Source of the DNA: an uncultured virus (IMG/VR IMGVR_UViG_3300017814_000173)
Taxonomy: Duplodnaviria; Heunggongvirae; Uroviricota; Caudoviricetes
Length of the DNA stretch: 20,000 nt
Strand: one strand, 5' to 3'
Virus record (IMG/VR): IMGVR_UViG_3300017814_000173
The position numbers and the translations under genes are program-made. The notes beneath the pieces were generated by a model that made no database searches, was not told the DNA's origin, and saw nothing but the letters and a program-made list of their open reading frames with translations. Numbering within the stretch: position 1 is the first letter of the stretch; every line of letters starts with the position of its first letter. Positions 2,285 through 19,153 of this stretch are shown piece after piece.

Positions 2285-2852
2285 CGTTTCCCTTTCCGCT
2301 TCTGCATTCCCCCAGCATGGCGGCAATCGACCGGGAGCGTTCCTCCGCATCGTAGTCTGGACATTTCAGGAACTTCATTCGGCGGCAGTTTGGACATTGT
2401 TTCTCTTCGTCCGTCATCAACTGTCCGCACTTGGCACAATATTTCCGCTTCAGAATGTCCGCCTCGATCAGCTGTTCGCGGGAACGGACGATTTCAGATT
2501 CTTCCGTTTTTTGCCAGACCCCGCCGTCGGCATCGATCACCGTGTAGCCCAGACGCCGCATGAGCTGAATAACCGGTTCGATATTCTGTCCGTCGCGCAC
2601 GATCACCGACATGGCGATTTGCTGGTCGGCCATGCCCAAGATCCGCCGTATGCCGAACGGTTCCAGGCTTCGCGCCTTGCCGGTGCGCGTGAGCTTGCCC
2701 TTGCGCTGCAAGGCCCGCAGGTGAGCGAAGATCGTCGAGGTCTTGATGTGAAATCGATCGGCCAGTTCGTACACGGTCGGCACGTTGCCTTGAAAATATC
2801 CGGCATGAATGGCGTCGAGCATTTCGATTTGTTTCTGCGTTAACTTTTTCAT
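2280..2852 (-). CDS. LexA-type winged-helix DNA-binding protein with C-terminal Zn-ribbon and no peptidase domain
   Basis: MKKLTQKQIEMLDAI...PTVYELADRFHIKTSTIFAHLRALQRKGKLTRTGKARSL matches the LexA DBD pattern; CAKC...CPNC near the C-terminus; start at 2852 chosen for the AAGGAA SD. Confidence 0.8.
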   Translation of the reverse strand: MKKLTQKQIEMLDAIHAGYFQGNVPTVYELADRFHIKTSTIFAHLRALQRKGKLTRTGKARSLEPFGIRRILGMADQQIAMSVIVRDGQNIEPVIQLMRRLGYTVIDADGGVWQKTEESEIVRSREQLIEADILKRKYCAKCGQLMTDEEKQCPNCRRMKFLKCPDYDAEERSRSIAAMLGECRSGKGNE

Positions 2853-2877
2853 GATTCTATTTTTTCCTTGTTTTGGG

Positions 2878-3123
2878 TCAATCGGTGATTTCCTGCCCAT
2901 TTTCCGGATCCGTTCCAATCAAAGTTTCCCGTCGCGGTTCCGCGCTGATGATATAGTCATATTCACCGGTGGGATCGGCATGTTGGTAACCGGGTTGACA
3001 ACTCATACAATCGCATTCGCAGCAGCCCAGATCCTCGATCGTGCAGCCGCAGACACCCGGATTGAACAATCCGTCGTAGCCGTGCTGCCGAAGGTAGTCG
3101 GTGATAATTTCTTTTGCTGTCAT
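2878..3123 (-). CDS. Small Cys-rich phage hypothetical protein
   Basis: ATG at 3123 overlaps the upstream stop (ATGA), GAGGAG SD; YLRQHGYDGLFNPGVCGCTIEDLGCCECDCMSCQPGY. Confidence 0.8.
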   Translation of the reverse strand: MTAKEIITDYLRQHGYDGLFNPGVCGCTIEDLGCCECDCMSCQPGYQHADPTGEYDYIISAEPRRETLIGTDPENGQEITD

Positions 3124-3647
3124 GGCTGTTTCTTCTCCGCAAACAGATCGTTTTTCTGGCTGTCGTTCCAGCGCTTGACGTCTTCGTGGGTAATTTTCAG
3201 GATTTTTACCGGGTTGCCGTTGCGCCACCGGTTATCGGCATACTGACAAGCCCGGAACGTTTTCTTCTTGTCATCGAAACTGGTGCAGGTCAGCTGCATG
3301 CCGCCGAACCAGATGAAATCGCGGCCGACATACATTCGGTCCGGCGTCTGCTTGCCTGGTTCACGGACTAGGAACGGCTTACGGCCCCAGTAATTTTCCA
3401 TGGCCATGGCGGCCGACCGGTTGCCAACACTATAAGTACGGCTTCCATGGCATGCCCGGGTATAAGTTCCTTCATTCGGAACCGGTAACCGGGCTTTGAA
3501 GTCGTCTGCAAAAAACTTGACTCCATAATCGATGGCATAATTGATTATTCCCCATTTGGCGTGAGCCCGCTGAATGGTGCTTTGAGTATTGACGCAGTAC
3601 AGTGCAGCGCAGTACAATTCTACTGCCGGGCTGATTTTTTCATCCAT
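3120..3647 (-). CDS. Hypothetical protein (175 aa)
   Basis: ATG at 3647 (MDEKISPAVELY...) with AAAGGA SD, downstream of the stop at 3671. Confidence 0.8.
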   Translation of the reverse strand: MDEKISPAVELYCAALYCVNTQSTIQRAHAKWGIINYAIDYGVKFFADDFKARLPVPNEGTYTRACHGSRTYSVGNRSAAMAMENYWGRKPFLVREPGKQTPDRMYVGRDFIWFGGMQLTCTSFDDKKKTFRACQYADNRWRNGNPVKILKITHEDVKRWNDSQKNDLFAEKKQP

Positions 3648-3670
3648 AATTATTATTCCTTTCTCTGGTA

Positions 3671-4390
3671 TTATTTCGGATTTTCCGGCGTGCCGTAGAT
3701 TTCTTCGCGCAAGGCATTGTCGCGTTCGGATCTCGCGGCGTCTTCCTGATATTGCCGGGCAATATCGCGTTGTATTTCTTCGTCCCATCTTTCCTCGACC
3801 GAATGGATTCGCTGTTGAATTTTGGCGCGAAGATCAGCCGCCACGCCCGGATATTCTTTTTCGCAGAGTGTGGCATACAGGGTCATTAAAGGAATCGTGA
3901 ACGGATCGTGCTCCCAGTCCAGCACAAAATATTCGCAATGTTCGTGTTTGCCGCCGGGAAGCGATGAGTCGTCCGTCCGGAACACCAGGTATTTAAGATA
4001 GAGCTGATCGCGGTTGAGTTCCGCTTCGTGTTCGCGTAGCCATGCATCATGACCGCGAAGCACGGCCGCCATCACCGCTTCATGCAAATCATAGGCCGTC
4101 AGGGACGTGTTTTCCAACGCATGGGTGAAAACCCGAGCCAGATGGTTGAACATGGCATCGTTTTTATATTTATCGACAATCTCCTGTTCGGTCGTCCGCT
4201 GGCCGTGATCGAGCAGCACGTCACGAAACAAGGTCAGGGCGCGAATCCGCTGGGTGTTCGGCGGCATAATCATCGGAATAGAGCCGAAAGTTTCCCGGCC
4301 GATCATTTCGCCAAGCTGTTTGGGATCGTCGGTTTTCAATAGCAAGGTCAGCGCCTTTTCCAGTTTCTCGATCTTTTCACCGTCCGTCAT
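3671..4390 (-). CDS. Phage hypothetical protein (239 aa)
   Basis: GGAG SD; segment KYLVFRTDDSSLPGGKHEHCEYFVLDWEHDPF...YPGVAADLR resembles a small domain I recognise from phage early genes, function unknown. Confidence 0.8.
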   Translation of the reverse strand: MTDGEKIEKLEKALTLLLKTDDPKQLGEMIGRETFGSIPMIMPPNTQRIRALTLFRDVLLDHGQRTTEQEIVDKYKNDAMFNHLARVFTHALENTSLTAYDLHEAVMAAVLRGHDAWLREHEAELNRDQLYLKYLVFRTDDSSLPGGKHEHCEYFVLDWEHDPFTIPLMTLYATLCEKEYPGVAADLRAKIQQRIHSVEERWDEEIQRDIARQYQEDAARSERDNALREEIYGTPENPK

Positions 4391-4394
4391 GGTT

Positions 4395-4940
4395 TTATTC
4401 TCCCTTGGCGGCGGCTTGCCGCAGATGCGTTTCCGATTTGAAATCCGATGCCGGCAGCGGCCAGCCGAGTTTTGCCGTCACCGCCTGGCGCAGATAGGGA
4501 TAGGCGATCTTGCGGTTGATTGCGTTGCTGATGTCGCTGGCATAGACGCCGAGCGCCTGAGCCAGCGCCGTCCGCGTGCCCATGATCCCGGCCGCCATTT
4601 CCAGCAGTTCGCCGATGGTTTTAATCTGCTTGAGATCGACGGCTTGCCGGACGTCTTCCAGCGTCTTGCCGGTGACTTTGGTATGTCCCGGACGACGCGC
4701 CGGATGTTCCGGGTTCCGCGCCGCTTCCAGTGCCCGCGCCGACTCCAGTTCCAGCCGCGTTGCCTCGGCTCGAATTTCCGGAGCGGGGCGCTGCGGTGGA
4801 AACGTCGGCGGAACGCCGGACGGCAGATGTACGGGCGGTTCAGACATCACCCGCTGGACGGCGGACCAGAAGCAGTCTTCCTCCACGTTCAATTCCCGGC
4901 ACAGCCTGCTCCATTCTTTGGCGGTAAATCCCAGTATCAT
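4395..4940 (-). CDS. Protein with C-terminal Cro/XRE-like HTH
   Basis: GGAGG SD; Pro-rich linker, then TRTALAQALGVYASDISNAIN HTH pattern. Confidence 0.7.
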   Translation of the reverse strand: MILGFTAKEWSRLCRELNVEEDCFWSAVQRVMSEPPVHLPSGVPPTFPPQRPAPEIRAEATRLELESARALEAARNPEHPARRPGHTKVTGKTLEDVRQAVDLKQIKTIGELLEMAAGIMGTRTALAQALGVYASDISNAINRKIAYPYLRQAVTAKLGWPLPASDFKSETHLRQAAAKGE

Positions 4941-4969
4941 TTTGCTTCCTCCCGAATTTAAAAGGGTTT

Positions 4970-5398
4970 TTATCTTTTCACTTCTTCACTTTTCACTGCG
5001 CCAACCCGGTCATTTTTTTTGAGGAAAAATCCGTCCTTATCCGGATAGGAGTCAAAAATCAATTGTCGATCCCGATTTAGTTCGGCAAGGCTTTTCGTCC
5101 GGAGCGTTGCGCACGGAAATTCATACGTTGTTTCCCCGTTAAATGGCAACAGCCTGAGCTTTTTTGCCGCAGAATCATGCGATACGATTTTCTGAATTCC
5201 AAATTGATTGATGGAATCGGCCGGAATTTTAACCGTCAGGTGAACCCCGGTAACGATGCGCTTTACCTGCTCGTTTGTCTTTTTTACATCAACGGTATCC
5301 ATATTGACATTGATTTTGCTTCCGTCCCCACTGGTTCCGATTTCGATCCCGCCGAATTCCACCCGGCACGGCCCGATTTTTAAATCGTCATTATTCAT
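4970..5398 (-). CDS. Siphovirus tail-tube-like protein (short, divergent)
   Basis: LKIGPCRVEFGGIEIGTSGDGSKINV...IVTG...VKIP...AKKLRLLP...YEFPCA...FDSYPD follows the motif order of a major tail tube family; ATGA overlap with the upstream gene. Confidence 0.6.
   Translation of the reverse strand: MNNDDLKIGPCRVEFGGIEIGTSGDGSKINVNMDTVDVKKTNEQVKRIVTGVHLTVKIPADSINQFGIQKIVSHDSAAKKLRLLPFNGETTYEFPCATLRTKSLAELNRDRQLIFDSYPDKDGFFLKKNDRVGAVKSEEVKR
4985..5002 (+). repeat. 18-bp direct repeat, copy 1 (ttcacttttcactgcgcc)
   Basis: Exact match to 5449-5466. Confidence 0.95.
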
Positions 5399-6033
5399 TT
5401 TTCCACTTCTTTCAGATTTTGTTCTTTGGCTCTTTCCTGCCGCCCTCTTTCACTTTTCACTGCGCCGTTCGACGCAACTTCACTTTTCACGTTCCGCAGG
5501 AACTCTTCACTTGGATTGTAGTCCACCACGTCGCCGCGCCGAGAGGTCGCGATCTTCAACTGCCGTTCGCGGATCCAGTTGTACCAATGCCGATTAGTGA
5601 CTTCCGGCGGACAGAAGCCGGTGACAATCGCGGTACGACGGTATTCCGCCAGTTCGCCGGTCAACCAGGCGCGAGGCAGATAGAGCCACCACGGGTCGAA
5701 CTTGATGCTGGCTTTGTCCGCCCAGCACAACATGGACGGTTCCATGCCGTTCTGTCGGGAATAATGCCGGGAATGGCACAGACACAGGTTGGCGTAATAC
5801 TTGTCGTCAAACAGACAATCAGCCAGCGCGGCGCCCAGTTCCGGATGCCGTTCGCCGCATTCATCGTCCATATGCCTTTTTCCGAGATAGCCCCAGTCAT
5901 GCATAACAATGCAGATGGTTTCCCGCCAGTTCGGCAACTGGTGAAACAGCCAGATCCACGCCAGCCAGACGGTGAACGGATGCCAGAATACCTGGTGTAC
6001 TCCGAATAACAGTGATTTGGTTCCGGTCTTCAT
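5395..6033 (-). CDS. HD-superfamily phosphohydrolase-like protein
   Basis: H...H near the N-terminus, then MHDWG, HPELGA, HSRH and WADK give the H/HD/H/H/D metal-ligand layout. Confidence 0.7.
   Translation of the reverse strand: MKTGTKSLLFGVHQVFWHPFTVWLAWIWLFHQLPNWRETICIVMHDWGYLGKRHMDDECGERHPELGAALADCLFDDKYYANLCLCHSRHYSRQNGMEPSMLCWADKASIKFDPWWLYLPRAWLTGELAEYRRTAIVTGFCPPEVTNRHWYNWIRERQLKIATSRRGDVVDYNPSEEFLRNVKSEVASNGAVKSERGRQERAKEQNLKEVEK
5449..5495 (+). repeat. 18-bp direct repeat, copy 2 (5449-5466), plus related copy cttcacttttcacgttcc (5478-5495)
   Basis: Read directly; encodes AVKSE and NVKSE at the C-terminus of the HD protein. Confidence 0.95.
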
Positions 6034-6037
6034 GCTC

Positions 6038-7927
6038 TTAGTTTTCCCTTTTTTTGTGAGTTATCAGGTTTTCAATCATTTCAATTCTTCGGCCGATCCA
6101 GCGCATGACATTGACGCCTATCGAATTGCCGCAAGCTTTATAGCGGGGTGAATCTGGGGTGAATGCCAACACGGCGGCAGCTTCCGCCGTGAAGCCGTGC
6201 GAAAGCAGATAGCGAAAGTTCTGTGACCATTCCGGCTTTTGCAGTTGCTTGGGCAGATCAATCTTTTTGGGCACGCGCCATGGAATGAGGGTGTGAAAAT
6301 CGGGAAAACCCATTAATCTCTCACATTCGAGCGGAGTCAACCGGCGTACCACTGTATCCAGAACCATGCCTTTATCCGAACCGCCTTGACCATTGCGCAA
6401 CGCGTTGGCAACTTCGCCGCCCAGCTCCGGCACGTTGTCGCCATCGCGGCCGCGCATCGCCAACGCGACTACCGGCATTTTTTTGCAATCGTGACCGGTC
6501 GAAAGTGTCTGTCCGACTTCGCCGGATGTACAACCGTTGCGGAGATCGTAAGCAATGATCGGCGTTCCGCGTCCGGTGCCGTCTTCCGAACCGTCGAACG
6601 CTTCGCCTTTCAACGTTTGCGCCACGGCACCGGCGATGCCGACCACGGTCGACGCTTCCCGGCCGTTCGTCTTCACCGTGCCGGAAACATTTTCATCCCG
6701 CCAGAATCCCGGACCGGATTCATAGCAGATAATATTACTCGGTCGACTTGGACGATTTTTTCCTTCTGCCCGAATTGTGCCGGATATTTCATCCTGATTC
6801 CAGAATCCTTGGCCGGTTTCCACTCCGATCAGAACCGCCGGTTCGGCGCAACGCGACGCCTTGAGCGTATCGGTGACATGTTCGTCGACGTTCATGGTCT
6901 GCCGGGATGACTTGTTCCAGCCGAACGACATCACCACCGGAGCTTCATGGTCGCAATTCAGCGTGAGGGAAAATCCGGAATTAACCTCGGAATTCCCCTG
7001 TCCGGTGGACATAATCAGCGGGAAAAAATCGCCAACGCGTTCCATGGCGTCGGACATCAGCGCCGGACTGGTGATGCCGTTCCCATACCCGCGACCATCA
7101 TAACCCAATGCGAGATTTTGCCGGTGCATCTCCTCGCCGGCGTCTACCGTTCCGGCAACCTCGGAGTGGTCATAACCGCCGAGAAAATTGCGAGACATGG
7201 TCAGTGTGTTCAGCGGTCCGGCGGCGCCGACAAAAGTTTGCTGCTGCTCTTTCCCGCTTGCGCCTCCAGTGCTCGCCGTAACGCTTCTGGCAACTCCCGT
7301 CCCCGCCTGGCGGCACGGCGCAGGATCCCCGCGCAGGCCGCAGATGTCAAATAATACCGCTGCGGCAGATCTCCGGTCTCCAAGATATCCGACAACGAAC
7401 ACACGCCGGCGTCGTTGAGGGACAGCCCGGCCAAACCCGTCCACTCGCACATACTGAACGTCCAGGACTCGCCACGCCAGACCGTACCCGCACTCCGCAA
7501 GCCCTGCGGTAAACTGGTCGAAATCGTTTGTGGCTTCCCATTCTTCCGCTTCATCTTCCGGTTCGCCCGACCAGCTGGAAAAGACGCCGGGAACGTTTTC
7601 CCAGACGATCCAGCGAGGCCGGATCGATTTAACCAGTCCGATAAAGTTTCTTGCGAGTCCGGAGCGCTGGTCAGCGAGTCCGCCGCGTTTCCCGGCGAGG
7701 CTGAATCCTTGGCAGGGGGTTCCTCCAACGAGAAGGTCAATTGATCCACGATAATCGTCTCCGTTAATTTTAGTCATATCTCCCAAATTCGGCACTTTGG
7801 GCCAGCGATAGGCCAGCACCGCGCACGGAAACGGCTCGATCTCGCTGAACCATGCCGGTTGCCAGCCCAGCGGTTCCCAGGCCAGCGTGGCGGCTTCCAC
7901 GCCGCTGCATAACGATCCGTATCTCAT
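6038..7927 (-). CDS. dcm: DNA (cytosine-5)-methyltransferase, phage type, with long repetitive variable region
   Basis: Motif I SLCSGVEA, IV GGTPCQGFS, VI WENVPG, VIII QRRRRVF, IX RRLTPLECERLMGFPD, X YKACGNS. Confidence 0.97.
   Translation of the reverse strand: MRYGSLCSGVEAATLAWEPLGWQPAWFSEIEPFPCAVLAYRWPKVPNLGDMTKINGDDYRGSIDLLVGGTPCQGFSLAGKRGGLADQRSGLARNFIGLVKSIRPRWIVWENVPGVFSSWSGEPEDEAEEWEATNDFDQFTAGLAECGYGLAWRVLDVQYVRVDGFGRAVPQRRRRVFVVGYLGDRRSAAAVLFDICGLRGDPAPCRQAGTGVARSVTASTGGASGKEQQQTFVGAAGPLNTLTMSRNFLGGYDHSEVAGTVDAGEEMHRQNLALGYDGRGYGNGITSPALMSDAMERVGDFFPLIMSTGQGNSEVNSGFSLTLNCDHEAPVVMSFGWNKSSRQTMNVDEHVTDTLKASRCAEPAVLIGVETGQGFWNQDEISGTIRAEGKNRPSRPSNIICYESGPGFWRDENVSGTVKTNGREASTVVGIAGAVAQTLKGEAFDGSEDGTGRGTPIIAYDLRNGCTSGEVGQTLSTGHDCKKMPVVALAMRGRDGDNVPELGGEVANALRNGQGGSDKGMVLDTVVRRLTPLECERLMGFPDFHTLIPWRVPKKIDLPKQLQKPEWSQNFRYLLSHGFTAEAAAVLAFTPDSPRYKACGNSIGVNVMRWIGRRIEMIENLITHKKREN
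7210..7749 (-). CDS. Nested +1-frame gene inside the C5 methyltransferase (putative second subunit)
   Basis: GTG start preceded by GGAGA SD (ACGGAGACGATTATC-GTG); 179 aa; C-terminal SLSDILETGDLPQRYYLTSAACAGILRRAARRGRELPEALRRAL looks like a real conserved domain. Confidence 0.7.
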   Translation of the reverse strand: MDQLTFSLEEPPAKDSASPGNAADSLTSAPDSQETLSDWLNRSGLAGSSGKTFPASFPAGRANRKMKRKNGKPQTISTSLPQGLRSAGTVWRGESWTFSMCEWTGLAGLSLNDAGVCSLSDILETGDLPQRYYLTSAACAGILRRAARRGRELPEALRRALEAQAGKSSSKLLSAPPDR

Positions 7928-11730: not shown

Positions 11731-11970
11731 TTAAAGTGCTTCGAGTTCTGCTTCGAGTTTAGCTTTATGGGCTTTTAAATTATCGATGTGATAAAGCTTT
11801 AACATCTTAGTTTCCAGATCATCGCTGAAAAAATAAAAGGACCGACTATCATCATTATCTCTGACCTCAAGATAAAATCGTTTGCAGGATTCGAGTTGTT
11901 TCAAGCGATTTTCTGTACTTGCAAGTAAATCTGCTATTTCTTTGGCCCGGTTAACATTTTCTCGTTTCAT
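11731..11970 (-). CDS. Small hypothetical protein (79 aa), AT-rich
   Basis: AAGGA SD; helical/coiled-coil character; visibly lower GC than its neighbours. Confidence 0.8.
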   Translation of the reverse strand: MKRENVNRAKEIADLLASTENRLKQLESCKRFYLEVRDNDDSRSFYFFSDDLETKMLKLYHIDNLKAHKAKLEAELEAL

Positions 11971-13823: not shown

Positions 13824-14210
13824 CTACAGTAACGTTCCTTGAGTTGGGGATTGAGTTTTGTTGTCGCGTTCGCTGATTTTAAGGTAGAGCAGCCCGGCCG
13901 GGGCCATCGGCTCCCGCATTTCCGCCTCGATCCGCTTGACCTGCACGTCATCGTCATAGGCGTTGGCGTGAGTCAAGGCATCGAGCAACGGCTTGAACAG
14001 GTTGTCCAGGTCCCGGCGCCGCCGGTCCGGCGGATAGACGTCCACCGCCAGCAGCAGCGGCCCTTGCAGTTTGGGCTGGCCGCGAATCGAGCCGGCCACC
14101 TGCTCCCGGTACCGCAGACCCTCTTTGCTGATCAGGGTCTGCGGCCCGACGCGCCGCCAGTAGTGGTTAACGCTGGGCGGATAGGGCAATTCGGCTTCGA
14201 TCCGGTTCAC
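13824..14210 (-). CDS. rusA: RusA-family Holliday junction resolvase
   Basis: LPYPPSVNHYWR...PPDRRRRDLDNLFKPLLDAL...DDVQV; GTG at 14210 overlaps the upstream stop (alternative GTG at 14222). Confidence 0.93.
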   Translation of the reverse strand: MNRIEAELPYPPSVNHYWRRVGPQTLISKEGLRYREQVAGSIRGQPKLQGPLLLAVDVYPPDRRRRDLDNLFKPLLDALTHANAYDDDVQVKRIEAEMREPMAPAGLLYLKISERDNKTQSPTQGTLL

Positions 14211-14653
14211 TTTCTGGCCCACGGCGCCGCGTCATTGACCGGCTGCGGCGGCCGGGCGTTGGCCTGGCGCGACGCATAACCCTTGATCTCGTTGCGGATA
14301 TCGCCGTTGGCATCCTTGCTCAACTTGACCTTGATCACCATCGGCAGATTGTGCAGTTCAACCGAATCTTTCGGTTGCATCACGCCCACCGCCCGGCAGA
14401 CGGCGGACAACTCGCCCCGGGCAATTCGGACCGCGTCGCTGTTCGGATTGTCGAGATTGAGATTGTTGAACAGCTTCCGGCCTTTGTGGTCGCCGGCGAT
14501 GATCTCGAACGTCAGTTTCAGAAAATGGCCGTTCTTGTTTTTGTTCTCCTTCATTTCCGATTCGGTGATGACAGCCTCGTAATCGCCTTCGGGGATCGGG
14601 TCGAACCCCACGTTCGGTTCCACCGTGTTCGCATCGAAATTCAGCGTTGCCAT
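14207..14653 (-). CDS. DUF669-family phage single-stranded DNA-binding protein
   Basis: FDPIPEGDYEAVITESE...LKLTFEI...GRKLFNNLNL...NEIKGY; located directly after the Sak4-like gene. Confidence 0.88.
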   Translation of the reverse strand: MATLNFDANTVEPNVGFDPIPEGDYEAVITESEMKENKNKNGHFLKLTFEIIAGDHKGRKLFNNLNLDNPNSDAVRIARGELSAVCRAVGVMQPKDSVELHNLPMVIKVKLSKDANGDIRNEIKGYASRQANARPPQPVNDAAPWARK

Positions 14654-14681: not shown

Positions 14682-15431
14682 TTATTTCTGCGGCGCGAGG
14701 GCGGCCATGAATGCCGACCACGACAGCGGCAGTTCGTCCGGCAGGTTGTAGCGGTTCTTGGCCATCACGTCGGGCCCGCCGACCGTCCGCATGATCCGTT
14801 CGCCGCCGTTCGCGCCGATCGCGTGAGCAATCGTCCGGTCGCCTTCCTTTTCCAGCCGGATGCGCCGGGTGGCGTAAAAGATCGCGTCCACCCATTCCGT
14901 CAGCATGGTCATCGCCAGCTTCTGCATCCGTGGCACCATCTGGTCGTAGGTCGAAGCGGTCGGGTCGCGGAACGGCCGGATGTCCGAGTGGGCCAGGAAG
15001 ATCACCGCCATATTCTTCTGCTGGCGCAACATGCCCAGTTTGTCCAGCAGTTCCGACCAGCAGTTGAGCGCGTTCTTGTAACCGTTGCCCCAGCCGCCGT
15101 CGGCCTTTTCAATCACCGAGACGCCGAATCGCTTGCAGACCGCGTCGAAAATCAGTTTTTCCAGCCAGTCGGCGCTGTCGATCACCACCGTTTGAAACTG
15201 GTGATCTTCGCGCAACAGCGTGTTCAGATAGTCATCGATCTGCTCGAGACTGGTCGCTAGCGGAAAACGGCTGCAGTCCACCTGATTCTGGCCGTCTTCG
15301 GTCGGGATAAAGATCGGGTTGGGCGCACTGGCGCCGAACGTGGTCTTGCCGATGCCTTCGGGACCGTGCAGCAGAATCCGCGGCGGCGGAAACTGCTTGC
15401 CGGTAATAATCGTTTTCAACAATGATTCCAT
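14682..15431 (-). CDS. Sak4-like ssDNA-annealing P-loop ATPase (AAA_24)
   Basis: LLHGPEGIGKTTF, TVVIDSADWLE, FLAHS, EWVDAIFYA, AKNRYNLP. Confidence 0.9.
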   Translation of the reverse strand: MESLLKTIITGKQFPPPRILLHGPEGIGKTTFGASAPNPIFIPTEDGQNQVDCSRFPLATSLEQIDDYLNTLLREDHQFQTVVIDSADWLEKLIFDAVCKRFGVSVIEKADGGWGNGYKNALNCWSELLDKLGMLRQQKNMAVIFLAHSDIRPFRDPTASTYDQMVPRMQKLAMTMLTEWVDAIFYATRRIRLEKEGDRTIAHAIGANGGERIMRTVGGPDVMAKNRYNLPDELPLSWSAFMAALAPQK

Positions 15432-17298: not shown

Positions 17299-18105
17299 TT
17301 AGCTCCTGCTCAGATAGCCGACACGTTCGTAATTGGTCGGCCAGAGTCCGGCGGCCTTGCATTCCCGCAGCCGACGAATCCCCGCCTGGTTTTCCATGAC
17401 CGTGGACACCAGATCGTCTTCCACCAGCCGGTCGACCCGCACCCGCCATGGGGCTTTTTTCTCGACCGCGATGATGTAGAATGGATACCGGATCCGGCTG
17501 ACCTGCAGCACGATATCCCAGTAGAAAGCCATTTGGCTCCAATACCCGTATTTCTTGGCGTCGAACGGGAAAAAATCGACGTCGTCGCACGTTTTCAAGT
17601 CGATGATCCCACGGTCCGGATGGAACTTGTCCATCCGAATCTGGCACGGCACGCCGCAGTATTCGGCGCGAACCACCGCTTCCGGAAAACCGCCGTCGAT
17701 CAGCTTCATTGCCTCGGCGTGACGCTGCACCGCGTTGAACAGAATTTTCACCTGTTCATAATCCGCCGGCCGGACGATTTCTTTCGTCTGCGTCGCCGCC
17801 CAGAGCTGGTAGGCTTGCGAATCCGGACCGTAGGCCTTACCCGTTTTCGGATTGACCGGTTCGTCGACCGTGAACTCATGGTCAAACGCTTCGCGGCCTT
17901 CCAGAATCAGACAATGCGCCGACCGACCCAACGCATAGGACGGTTTATCTTCGTCCACCACCTCGCCGGTCAGTTTCATCTGATAGAGCCGCGGACATTT
18001 CATGAAATCTTTCAGCATATGACTGCTGAGATATTCGCCGCGCCGCGTCCGGGCGTGATATTCGGCCTGATCCTCGATAATCAGCCAGTCGGGACGGTTA
18101 TTCAT
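17299..18105 (-). CDS. RecE/exonuclease VIII-like PD-(D/E)XK nuclease
   Basis: EYHA...LSSHMLKDF..CPRLY, LGRSAHCLILEG, CQIRMD...IIDLKT, YGYWSQMAFY, IAVEKKAPW; ATG at 18105 with GGGAGG SD. Confidence 0.9.
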   Translation of the reverse strand: MNNRPDWLIIEDQAEYHARTRRGEYLSSHMLKDFMKCPRLYQMKLTGEVVDEDKPSYALGRSAHCLILEGREAFDHEFTVDEPVNPKTGKAYGPDSQAYQLWAATQTKEIVRPADYEQVKILFNAVQRHAEAMKLIDGGFPEAVVRAEYCGVPCQIRMDKFHPDRGIIDLKTCDDVDFFPFDAKKYGYWSQMAFYWDIVLQVSRIRYPFYIIAVEKKAPWRVRVDRLVEDDLVSTVMENQAGIRRLRECKAAGLWPTNYERVGYLSRS

Positions 18106-19153
18106 GACGCGCCCTCCCGTTGATCCAGGCGCGCCGCCGTTCGGAATAATCCGGCTTTTGATAATCGCGCCAGAAATCGGCGAACCGGTCATGGACCAGC
18201 TTGATCATTTCGGCAATGGCCTGAATCCGTTCGCCGATGCGTTCGTCATCGGTGTCGCCTTCTTCTTTGGGCAGCTTCAATCCCGACCAGACCATCCGGT
18301 TTGCCTCAAACCGGCCTTCCCATAGGTCTTCATGGTTCGGCGCGATTCGCAGCATCGCCTTGCTCAATGTTTTGCCGCCCAGCAACGCCGCCTGCAACTC
18401 ATCGCAGACCGGCGCTCCATAGCCTTTCGCCGCTACCGTGGTGGACACCCGGGCTTCGTCCTGATGTTCGTCGTCATAATAGAGTTCGATCGGGTCGGCC
18501 ACATAGAATGCCGGGTCGCCGTCCAACTTCCAGACTTCACCCTGCCACAGACACCAGGTCAGGAACTCCCGGCCGATACCGTCCGGCGGCGGGACATTCG
18601 TATCCAACGCCTTGGCCCATCCCCACGGCGTCAACTGTTCCAGTTCCACACCGAAGGTCTTATAGAACTGCACGATCAAGGTATCCGAACTGGCAGACGA
18701 GAAGTTCAACGCATAGACGCGCCGTTCGGCCGGGACAACGATCACCTGTATCCAGGTCAGCGTCGGCAATGCCTTGTGCGACAGCTCGTCCGCAACCTCG
18801 GCTTGGATGTCCCGGCGGATTTTCCGGGGTACGCGACTGGAATCGGTTTGTTTCTTCCAGAGTTCAACCTTGCGCTCGACCGCCGCCGCCATCAGCTTGG
18901 ACGACGCCTTGCGTTCGGCGGCGCGTAGATGCAGCAGATAATAATCGCCGCACCGGCAGGTCTCGTCGTTGAAATCGCAACTCAACACATCGCGTCCGGT
19001 AGACCATCCCAACTGCTTTTGATCGGGCTGAACACTGTCCAGAACGCCGGCTTTATTGTTTGCCAGTTGTTGATAAGCATCGTCCCAGTCCGGCGGAAAG
19101 TCGCCGAGCATCTGAAAGACGGTCAGCGCCATGCTTGGTTTCAAGATATCCAT
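18098..19153 (-). CDS. rdgC: RdgC-like recombination-associated protein
   Basis: LGW...YYLLHLRAAERKASSKLMAAAV...RKIRRDIQAEVADELSHKALPT matches the RdgC N-terminal pattern; ATG at 19153. Confidence 0.75.
   Translation of the reverse strand: MDILKPSMALTVFQMLGDFPPDWDDAYQQLANNKAGVLDSVQPDQKQLGWSTGRDVLSCDFNDETCRCGDYYLLHLRAAERKASSKLMAAAVERKVELWKKQTDSSRVPRKIRRDIQAEVADELSHKALPTLTWIQVIVVPAERRVYALNFSSASSDTLIVQFYKTFGVELEQLTPWGWAKALDTNVPPPDGIGREFLTWCLWQGEVWKLDGDPAFYVADPIELYYDDEHQDEARVSTTVAAKGYGAPVCDELQAALLGGKTLSKAMLRIAPNHEDLWEGRFEANRMVWSGLKLPKEEGDTDDERIGERIQAIAEMIKLVHDRFADFWRDYQKPDYSERRRAWINGRARHE

Follow-up and report, generated by a model that had tools for sequence, protein, structure and literature searches.

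The provirus record G000 comprises 66,880 bp, and the window analyzed here, a stretch of 20,000 nucleotides, is its final 20 kb. The genes of the window lie on the minus strand and are of replication and recombination kinds (Table 1). Judging from the relatives of a 142-aa open reading frame (ORF) in this window, the host of G000 is probably a Lentisphaeria bacterium. The structural gene nearest to the ORF is the terminase, about 10.7 kb off, beyond which the record carries a full module with portal, capsid-protease, head decoration, major tail protein, and tape measure genes; the initial annotation, made from the sequence of the window, was thus right that no morphogenesis genes lie near the ORF. 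The gene immediately upstream encodes an HD-like protein without a Pfam match that belongs to a widespread, unnamed phage family (270 relatives at an E value of ≤0.001), with residues H13, H45-D46, H63, H87, H90, and D106 invariant in 20 relatives. Its stop codon overlaps the start of the 142-aa ORF (positions 5395 to 5398), an arrangement that had been described as translational coupling; the overlap is there, but we judge the coupling to be a by-product, as is the altered end of the HD-like gene. The cassette carrying the ORF is AT-richer than its surroundings, as first noted, with a GC content of 0.45 against 0.55 to 0.56 in the flanks, although low GC is not unique within the window (0.46 at 1297 to 2145 and 0.36 at 11731 to 11970). 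A search for sigma-70-like promoters, the one type covered, found none between positions 4300 and 6300, where 1.1 would be expected by chance, and no terminator was found behind the ORF.

Table 1. Positions of the insertion, its flanking genes, and other features of the 20-kb window
Feature	Position	Strand	Remarks
Downstream gene	4395..4940	(-)	Follows the HD-like gene directly in G001; far side of the empty site
142-aa ORF, predicted trimmed tail-tube homologue	4970..5398	(-)	Core, residues 1-131
Repeat, downstream copy (exact, 18 bp)	4985..5002	(-)	Within the last codons of the 142-aa ORF
Inserted unit (464 bp)	5003..5466	(-)	Made up of 446 foreign bp and one copy of the repeat; G001/L002 lack it
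HD-like gene	5395..6033	(-)	Conserved His/Asp pattern; tail past about residue 175 not conserved
Purine-rich leader (50 nt)	5399..5448	(-)	Entered with the gene; read through as the final residues of the upstream ORF
Repeat, upstream copy (exact, 18 bp)	5449..5466	(-)	
Third copy of the repeat core (12 bp)	5479..5490	(-)	Recipient DNA; diverged in G001
SSB-like gene	14207-14653		With the Sak4-like and exonuclease VIII-like genes, candidate short-homology recombination machinery (context only)
Sak4-like single-strand annealing protein	14682..15431	(-)	Candidate short-homology recombination machinery (context only)
Exonuclease VIII-like gene	17299-18192		Candidate short-homology recombination machinery (context only)
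Window gene content			RdgC-like, exonuclease VIII-like, Sak4-like annealing protein, SSB-like, RusA, helicase, ThyX-family, methylases

The 142-aa ORF has no Pfam match, and an Atlas feature search with it was empty. No close relatives were found among 5.8 billion proteins (nine candidates, one of which was the ORF itself) or in viral, metagenome, and genome DNA collections. Matches to rhinovirus VP1 in PDB sequence searches (E, 0.8 to 1) were set aside as chance, and the family profile had no PDB sequence match. Weak matches to PHROG 1280 and 2175 and to SSU5-like phages led to a tail-tube family. The genes of these two PHROGs lie between tail completion and chaperone/tape-measure genes, and their proteins have a predicted tube fold. 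Both PHROGs are labelled “Ig domain containing protein” in the category “other”; their position and predicted fold identify them as major tail (tube) proteins. Compared with 62 SSU5-type tubes, the ORF gave an hhalign value of 93% (E, 3.3e-7; 130 columns), and it scored 23.5 bits against a 51-member hidden Markov model (HMM) built without it, the highest of 500 shuffled sequences reaching 4.2 bits. A closer subfamily occurs in Lentisphaeria, where the tube family is present in 53 of 351 genomes of the class; its member L128, located in a canonical tail module of a Lentisphaerota genome, is 27% identical over 154 columns. Against an HMM of 25 Lentisphaeria tubes the ORF scored 59.5 bits (top shuffle, 6.6), a value inflated by the finding of this set with a profile that contained the ORF. 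The top single relative among the 147 best representatives of 1.84 billion proteins was 27.5% identical, identity to family members ranged from 20 to 30%, and the ORF keeps nine columns that are invariant in alignment A3. The Atlas model of the ORF (pLDDT, 0.36) gave no tube match. An alignment-guided model, which leans on the alignment of tube proteins, reached a pLDDT of 74.5 and had the YSD1 major tail protein as its best solved match (Z, 9.8; rmsd, 2.8; 119 aligned residues); its top solved matches were tail tubes or Hcp, and Foldseek agreed. By profile comparison and predicted fold, the 142-aa ORF is genuinely homologous to tail tubes, which bears out the siphovirus tail tube homology first proposed from motif recall.

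The homologue is strongly diverged. In each of two trees its end branch exceeds all others (2.19 and 1.58 versus medians of 0.29 and 0.39); the placement of the ORF, unresolved in one tree and weakly beside the SSU5-type tubes in the other, is not relied on given the long branch. The shortening that had been reported is real: 20 residues are lost relative to the Lentisphaeria profile, namely, 3 at the tip of the hairpin, 13 following the helix, and 4 within a late loop, and among 124 full-span relatives 1 is equally short. As large a deletion at the hairpin tip was seen in 2 of the 124 relatives, and the hairpin itself is present and still long in the model (strands 27 to 40 and 43 to 59), with its DQ motif lost. 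The net charge is +3 versus a median of −9 in the 62 SSU5-type tubes, the one set for which this comparison was made; DNA-conducting tubes have an acidic lumen, according to the accessible part of PMC10973363. Its place outside the tail module, its branch length, its three deletions, and its charge argue that the ORF is not a normal tube. Hydrophobic columns were kept in 24 of 32 cases versus 10 of 74 for polar columns (P = 1e-9), and an open frame at about 25% identity would have a chance of about 0.5% under neutral drift. On such sequence evidence, selection maintained the fold of the ORF through most of its past, whatever the setting, and the signal may date from life as an ordinary tube or host gene. 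P0274, which is nested in the host-lineage clade, carries nearly the same three deletions, lost independently. The trimming therefore marks release from tube duty rather than being a signature of the decoy function considered below. Both features of the “stray and trimmed” tube of the initial annotation hold, but their value as a pointer to a weapon is weakened, since stray shortened tubes are not rare in the host lineage.

The prophage also has a separate full-length tube gene of its own, an arrangement on which the first reading of the locus had depended. This gene (C1:23693-24346, phrog_1407) stands in a full tail module 27 kb from the 142-aa ORF, and its comparison with the SSU5-type family (hhalign, 0.2%) places it in a different tube family. 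It is 93% identical in the closest relative, provirus G001, which lacks a homologue of the 142-aa ORF. The ORF itself lies outside the tail operon (terminator to chaperone/tape measure) and thus not in the position of a structural tube. Because the prophage's own tube is of another family and is kept at 93% identity in G001 without the ORF, the 142-aa gene is foreign and not needed for the virion in this lineage.

In G001 (L002), one copy of the repeat core separates the HD-like gene from a homologue of the gene at 4395 to 4940 that comes after it. BLAST matches of G001 to the window cover positions 2511 to 4996 (93%) and 5449 to 6033 (72%) and meet on the same 12 bases, and both flanks of this empty site can be aligned base by base between G000 and G001. 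A contig of run X5 makes the same jump as G001, and one of run X6 leaves the window at 4996 with empty-site sequence (right end). Among eight metagenome matches to the start of the downstream gene, one (L161) is the G001 empty site and seven are unrelated chance matches. Since L002, L005, L161, and probably X5 and X6 represent one phage lineage, the empty site is counted once. At this locus 464 bp have been inserted, with 18 bp exactly duplicated at the ends, and the insert amounts to almost exactly one gene and its leader; the allele lacking the gene that the initial annotation had anticipated in relatives is found in G001/L002, X5, and X6, that is, in one lineage. An assembly artifact was ruled out, single contigs spanning the cassette in source runs X1, X2, and X3. 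Run X7, from another study (depth, 2.6; not taken as evidence), contained a single identical piece, 179 bp long and lying within the ORF; no further part of the window had a long, near-identical counterpart there. The cassette DNA had no match in the loci compared, and no tube homologue was found beside 41 other HD-like genes. Microhomology with a donor through a Gly-Ala-Val end, as in tube L130, was considered and is weak, with 1 of 25 relatives having this end.

The 18-mers at 4985 to 5002 and 5449 to 5466 are, as first stated, identical; they cannot be extended and are spaced by 464 bp. Exact repeats of at least 18 bp within 1 kb occurred in 0 of 60, 0 of 60, and 1 of 60 Markov-random 20-kb sequences of orders 2, 4, and 5, respectively. 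Since the 66.9-kb record holds four further exact repeats of 18 to 33 bp and the site is locally repetitive, the length of the repeat alone proves nothing, and the proof is the empty site. The initial annotation had regarded the repeats as a device through which recombination would remove the gene. We infer instead that the second copy is a recent duplication made at insertion, which is the better fit because the two copies agree even at bases not shared with G001 and the cargo is foreign and one of a kind. No deletion joint was found in the contigs of source runs X1 to X4, assembled contigs being prone to drop rare variants. The statement that the repeats enclose almost the whole gene holds in that the repeat-bounded unit contains most of the ORF; the stop codon lies outside, the last codons and stop being recipient DNA beyond the repeat. 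Likewise, the arithmetic by which a deletion would leave the HD-like gene with an in-frame end is right, both repeats lying in frame 0 of their ORFs, but the point is immaterial, since the conserved domain stops near residue 175 and the G001 gene ends at 190 aa, ahead of the repeat, which is intergenic there.

Morons are extra genes between adjacent genes, with deviating GC content and with their own promoter and terminator. Like morons and other accessory insertions, the locus has one extra gene of deviating, low GC between genes that are adjacent in a relative; it differs from them in that no promoter of its own was found, in that the exact 18-bp end duplication is preserved, and in that the cargo is a structural-gene homologue. 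With the SSU5/Cyrano-type major tail proteins (PHROG 1280 and 2175) and the Lentisphaeria subfamily, the ORF is collinear over about 130 residues and shares the predicted fold, but it is set apart from these tubes by its position outside a tail module, its identity of 20 to 30%, its positive charge, and a length 20 residues below that of the Lentisphaeria profile. Another phage accessory protein, the anti-DSR2 protein DSAD1 of SPbeta, imitates the tube and occupies the pocket of the sensor (PMC10973363, accessible part); the mimic described there has eight strands and one helix, whereas the ORF is a recognizable tube-gene descendant and a candidate by analogy. PDB sequence searches gave no sequence link between the two. 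Ccm of SaPIbov5 and P-FimU of Pseudomonas prophages are structural-subunit homologues kept apart from the module and used against phages, and the ORF, too, is homologous to a subunit of a candidate target assembly and encoded apart from it. As far as the available portions of their reports go, Ccm and P-FimU relate to capsid and pilus and are conserved families with tested effects, whereas the ORF relates to the tail tube. The tail-assembly inhibitors Tab, Tai, and Rta are also accessory genes of prophages or satellites, and theirs is a block of tails; in the available portions of those reports, Tab and Rta target the tape measure protein and none of the three is described as a tube homologue. 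By analogy, any function of the ORF would resemble that of DSAD1, Ccm, or P-FimU, but the ORF is a member of none of these groups.

Our preferred reading, drawn by analogy and given a probability of about 0.32, is that the foreign trimmed tube homologue in the insert acts as a nonassembling decoy that engages the host immune sensors which recognize phage tail tubes. The unit would have entered by short-homology recombination or template switching, duplicating 18 bp, plausibly via the Sak4-like system. Since no promoter of its own was found, and judging from gene content, it would be transcribed with the replication/recombination operon in lytic growth, ahead of the prophage's own tube, and this presumed timing fits a decoy for tube sensors better than a defense of the lysogen. 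The protein is predicted to fold as a tube monomer or ring that would stack poorly, the hairpin tip and two loops being cut, and, much as DSAD1 does with DSR2, it would engage tube sensors of the DSR2 or Avs16 type without activating them. Rings are stacked through the hairpin, which is also the element bound by DSR2 (PMC10973363, accessible part); the same hairpin is bound by Avs16 (PMC13581612, accessible part). That the hairpin cut in the ORF is the element bound by both sensors supports a decoy, and the single occurrence of the ORF weakens it. Ring stacking by the ORF is conceivable, since the hairpin is still long in the model, and a tube fold made early could trigger the sensors instead of blocking them. 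The literature covered, which took in PMC13728456 and a minority of subscription papers, contained no tube homologue used as a decoy or poison.

More generally, it is possible, if doubtful, that phages recruit entire tube genes of a competitor family, blunt the stacking hairpin, and carry them as mobile one-gene cassettes against tube-sensing immunity (Avs16, DSR2) or for capping rival tails. If this is true, counterdefense would be made out of just the pattern recognized by the sensor. Tube-sensing receptors read fold rather than sequence, so that escape by point mutation would be hard. A naturally occurring tube derivative, trimmed at the hairpin that is sensed, would be a ready-made reagent, and one small gene is cheap to test. 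Should the ORF block sensors, it would point to a general route of counterdefense and to a search rule (foreign structural homologues at filled and empty sites); should it do nothing, the locus would be a clean snapshot of phage gene gain through an 18-bp duplication.

Nearly as likely as the decoy is that the gene has no role. It would then be a tube gene of a coresident prophage, or a stray Lentisphaeria chromosomal copy, captured by chance via short homology and tolerated because the insertion is nonpolar and leaves both neighbors intact. The gene occurs once and borrows its stop codon from recipient DNA, and the event looks recent, as the repeats are identical at 18 of 18 positions while the flanks differ from G001 at about 1 base in 5 to 6. 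Donors are plentiful, given the 53 of 351 genomes of the class with the tube family, and many such tubes lie beside housekeeping genes or in small capsid/tail remnants. The GC and GC3 values of the gene match those of Lentisphaeria tube genes, the window is highly mosaic relative to G001, and the trimming recurs in P0274. Chance capture is harder to reconcile with the lack of a donor above about 28% identity over the full length, whether among the 147 best representatives of 1.84 billion proteins or in the 351 genomes, and with insert ends that take in one gene and its leader, which random capture would seldom produce.

An assembly poison is less probable than either the decoy or chance capture. 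The protein would join, and cap or distort, the tails of rival phages or host tail-like particles with a Lentisphaeria- or SSU5-type tube, sparing the prophage's own tube. It is indeed related to the rival family rather than to the own tube (hhalign, 0.2%), the target family is common in the host class, and in the predicted structure the ring-forming strands are kept while the tip of the stacking hairpin is cut. Ccm (PMC8569155) and P-FimU (PMC12952977) offer precedents for interfering structural homologues, as far as the accessible parts of these papers go. Identity to possible targets, at 16 to 30%, is low for coassembly, and without a promoter of its own in the region searched, expression in the lysogen, where such a defense would be most useful, is doubtful; Tab is constitutive (PMC10884400, accessible part). 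A minor component of the prophage's own virion, or a helper of tail assembly, could share the predicted tube fold, but this is very unlikely for a gene 27 kb from the tail module and of a different tube family, given that G001 has the 93% identical tube and no such gene. Least likely of all, and largely refuted, is that the repeat is a recurrent cassette-exchange motif, a dedicated boundary sequence of the phage group rather than a one-off duplication: its core occurs three times at the site and once, with one mismatch, at 2254 to 2265 before another low-GC orphan gene, but G001 (63 kb) has one copy and G002 none, the 2 of 44 HD-gene loci with the repeat are both the same G001 site with none at the 41 others, the viral collection contains no exact copy of the 18-mer, and no other insert was found at the insertion site.

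Other parts of the window also differ from the relatives. At 2197 to 2290, degenerate copies of the repeat core are clustered ahead of a low-GC singleton gene (1297 to 2145) that is absent from G001. The gene at 2280 to 2918 encodes a LexA-type DNA-binding domain; its C-terminal half is wholly unlike that of the G001 homologue, and identity breaks at 2511. G001 and G002 carry a different allele of the methylase (6038 to 7927) that lies upstream of the HD-like gene, which marks a second swap point beside the insertion.

The tube family was also often seen outside intact prophages on chromosomes of Lentisphaeria, the class of G003 (L131 to L159 and L169 to L173). Lone tube genes stand beside housekeeping genes in several species (L152, L154, L155, and L159), and others form mini-modules with chaperone-like genes (L133 to L135, L137, and L138), tandem diverged pairs and scaffold-capsid-adaptor-tube mini-clusters (L171 and L173), or 300-aa tube fusions (L143, L146, and L150). 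We found nothing in the literature on these scattered genes, which look like domesticated virion genes and possibly belong to a gene-transfer-agent-like system. At L168:8759-18808 (G147:C2), genes for a repressor, a RecE-like exonuclease, an initiator, and a DnaC-like protein are directly followed by tail-module genes; with no capsid, portal, or terminase gene seen in the 20 kb examined, this locus is possibly a tail-only element or a decayed prophage.
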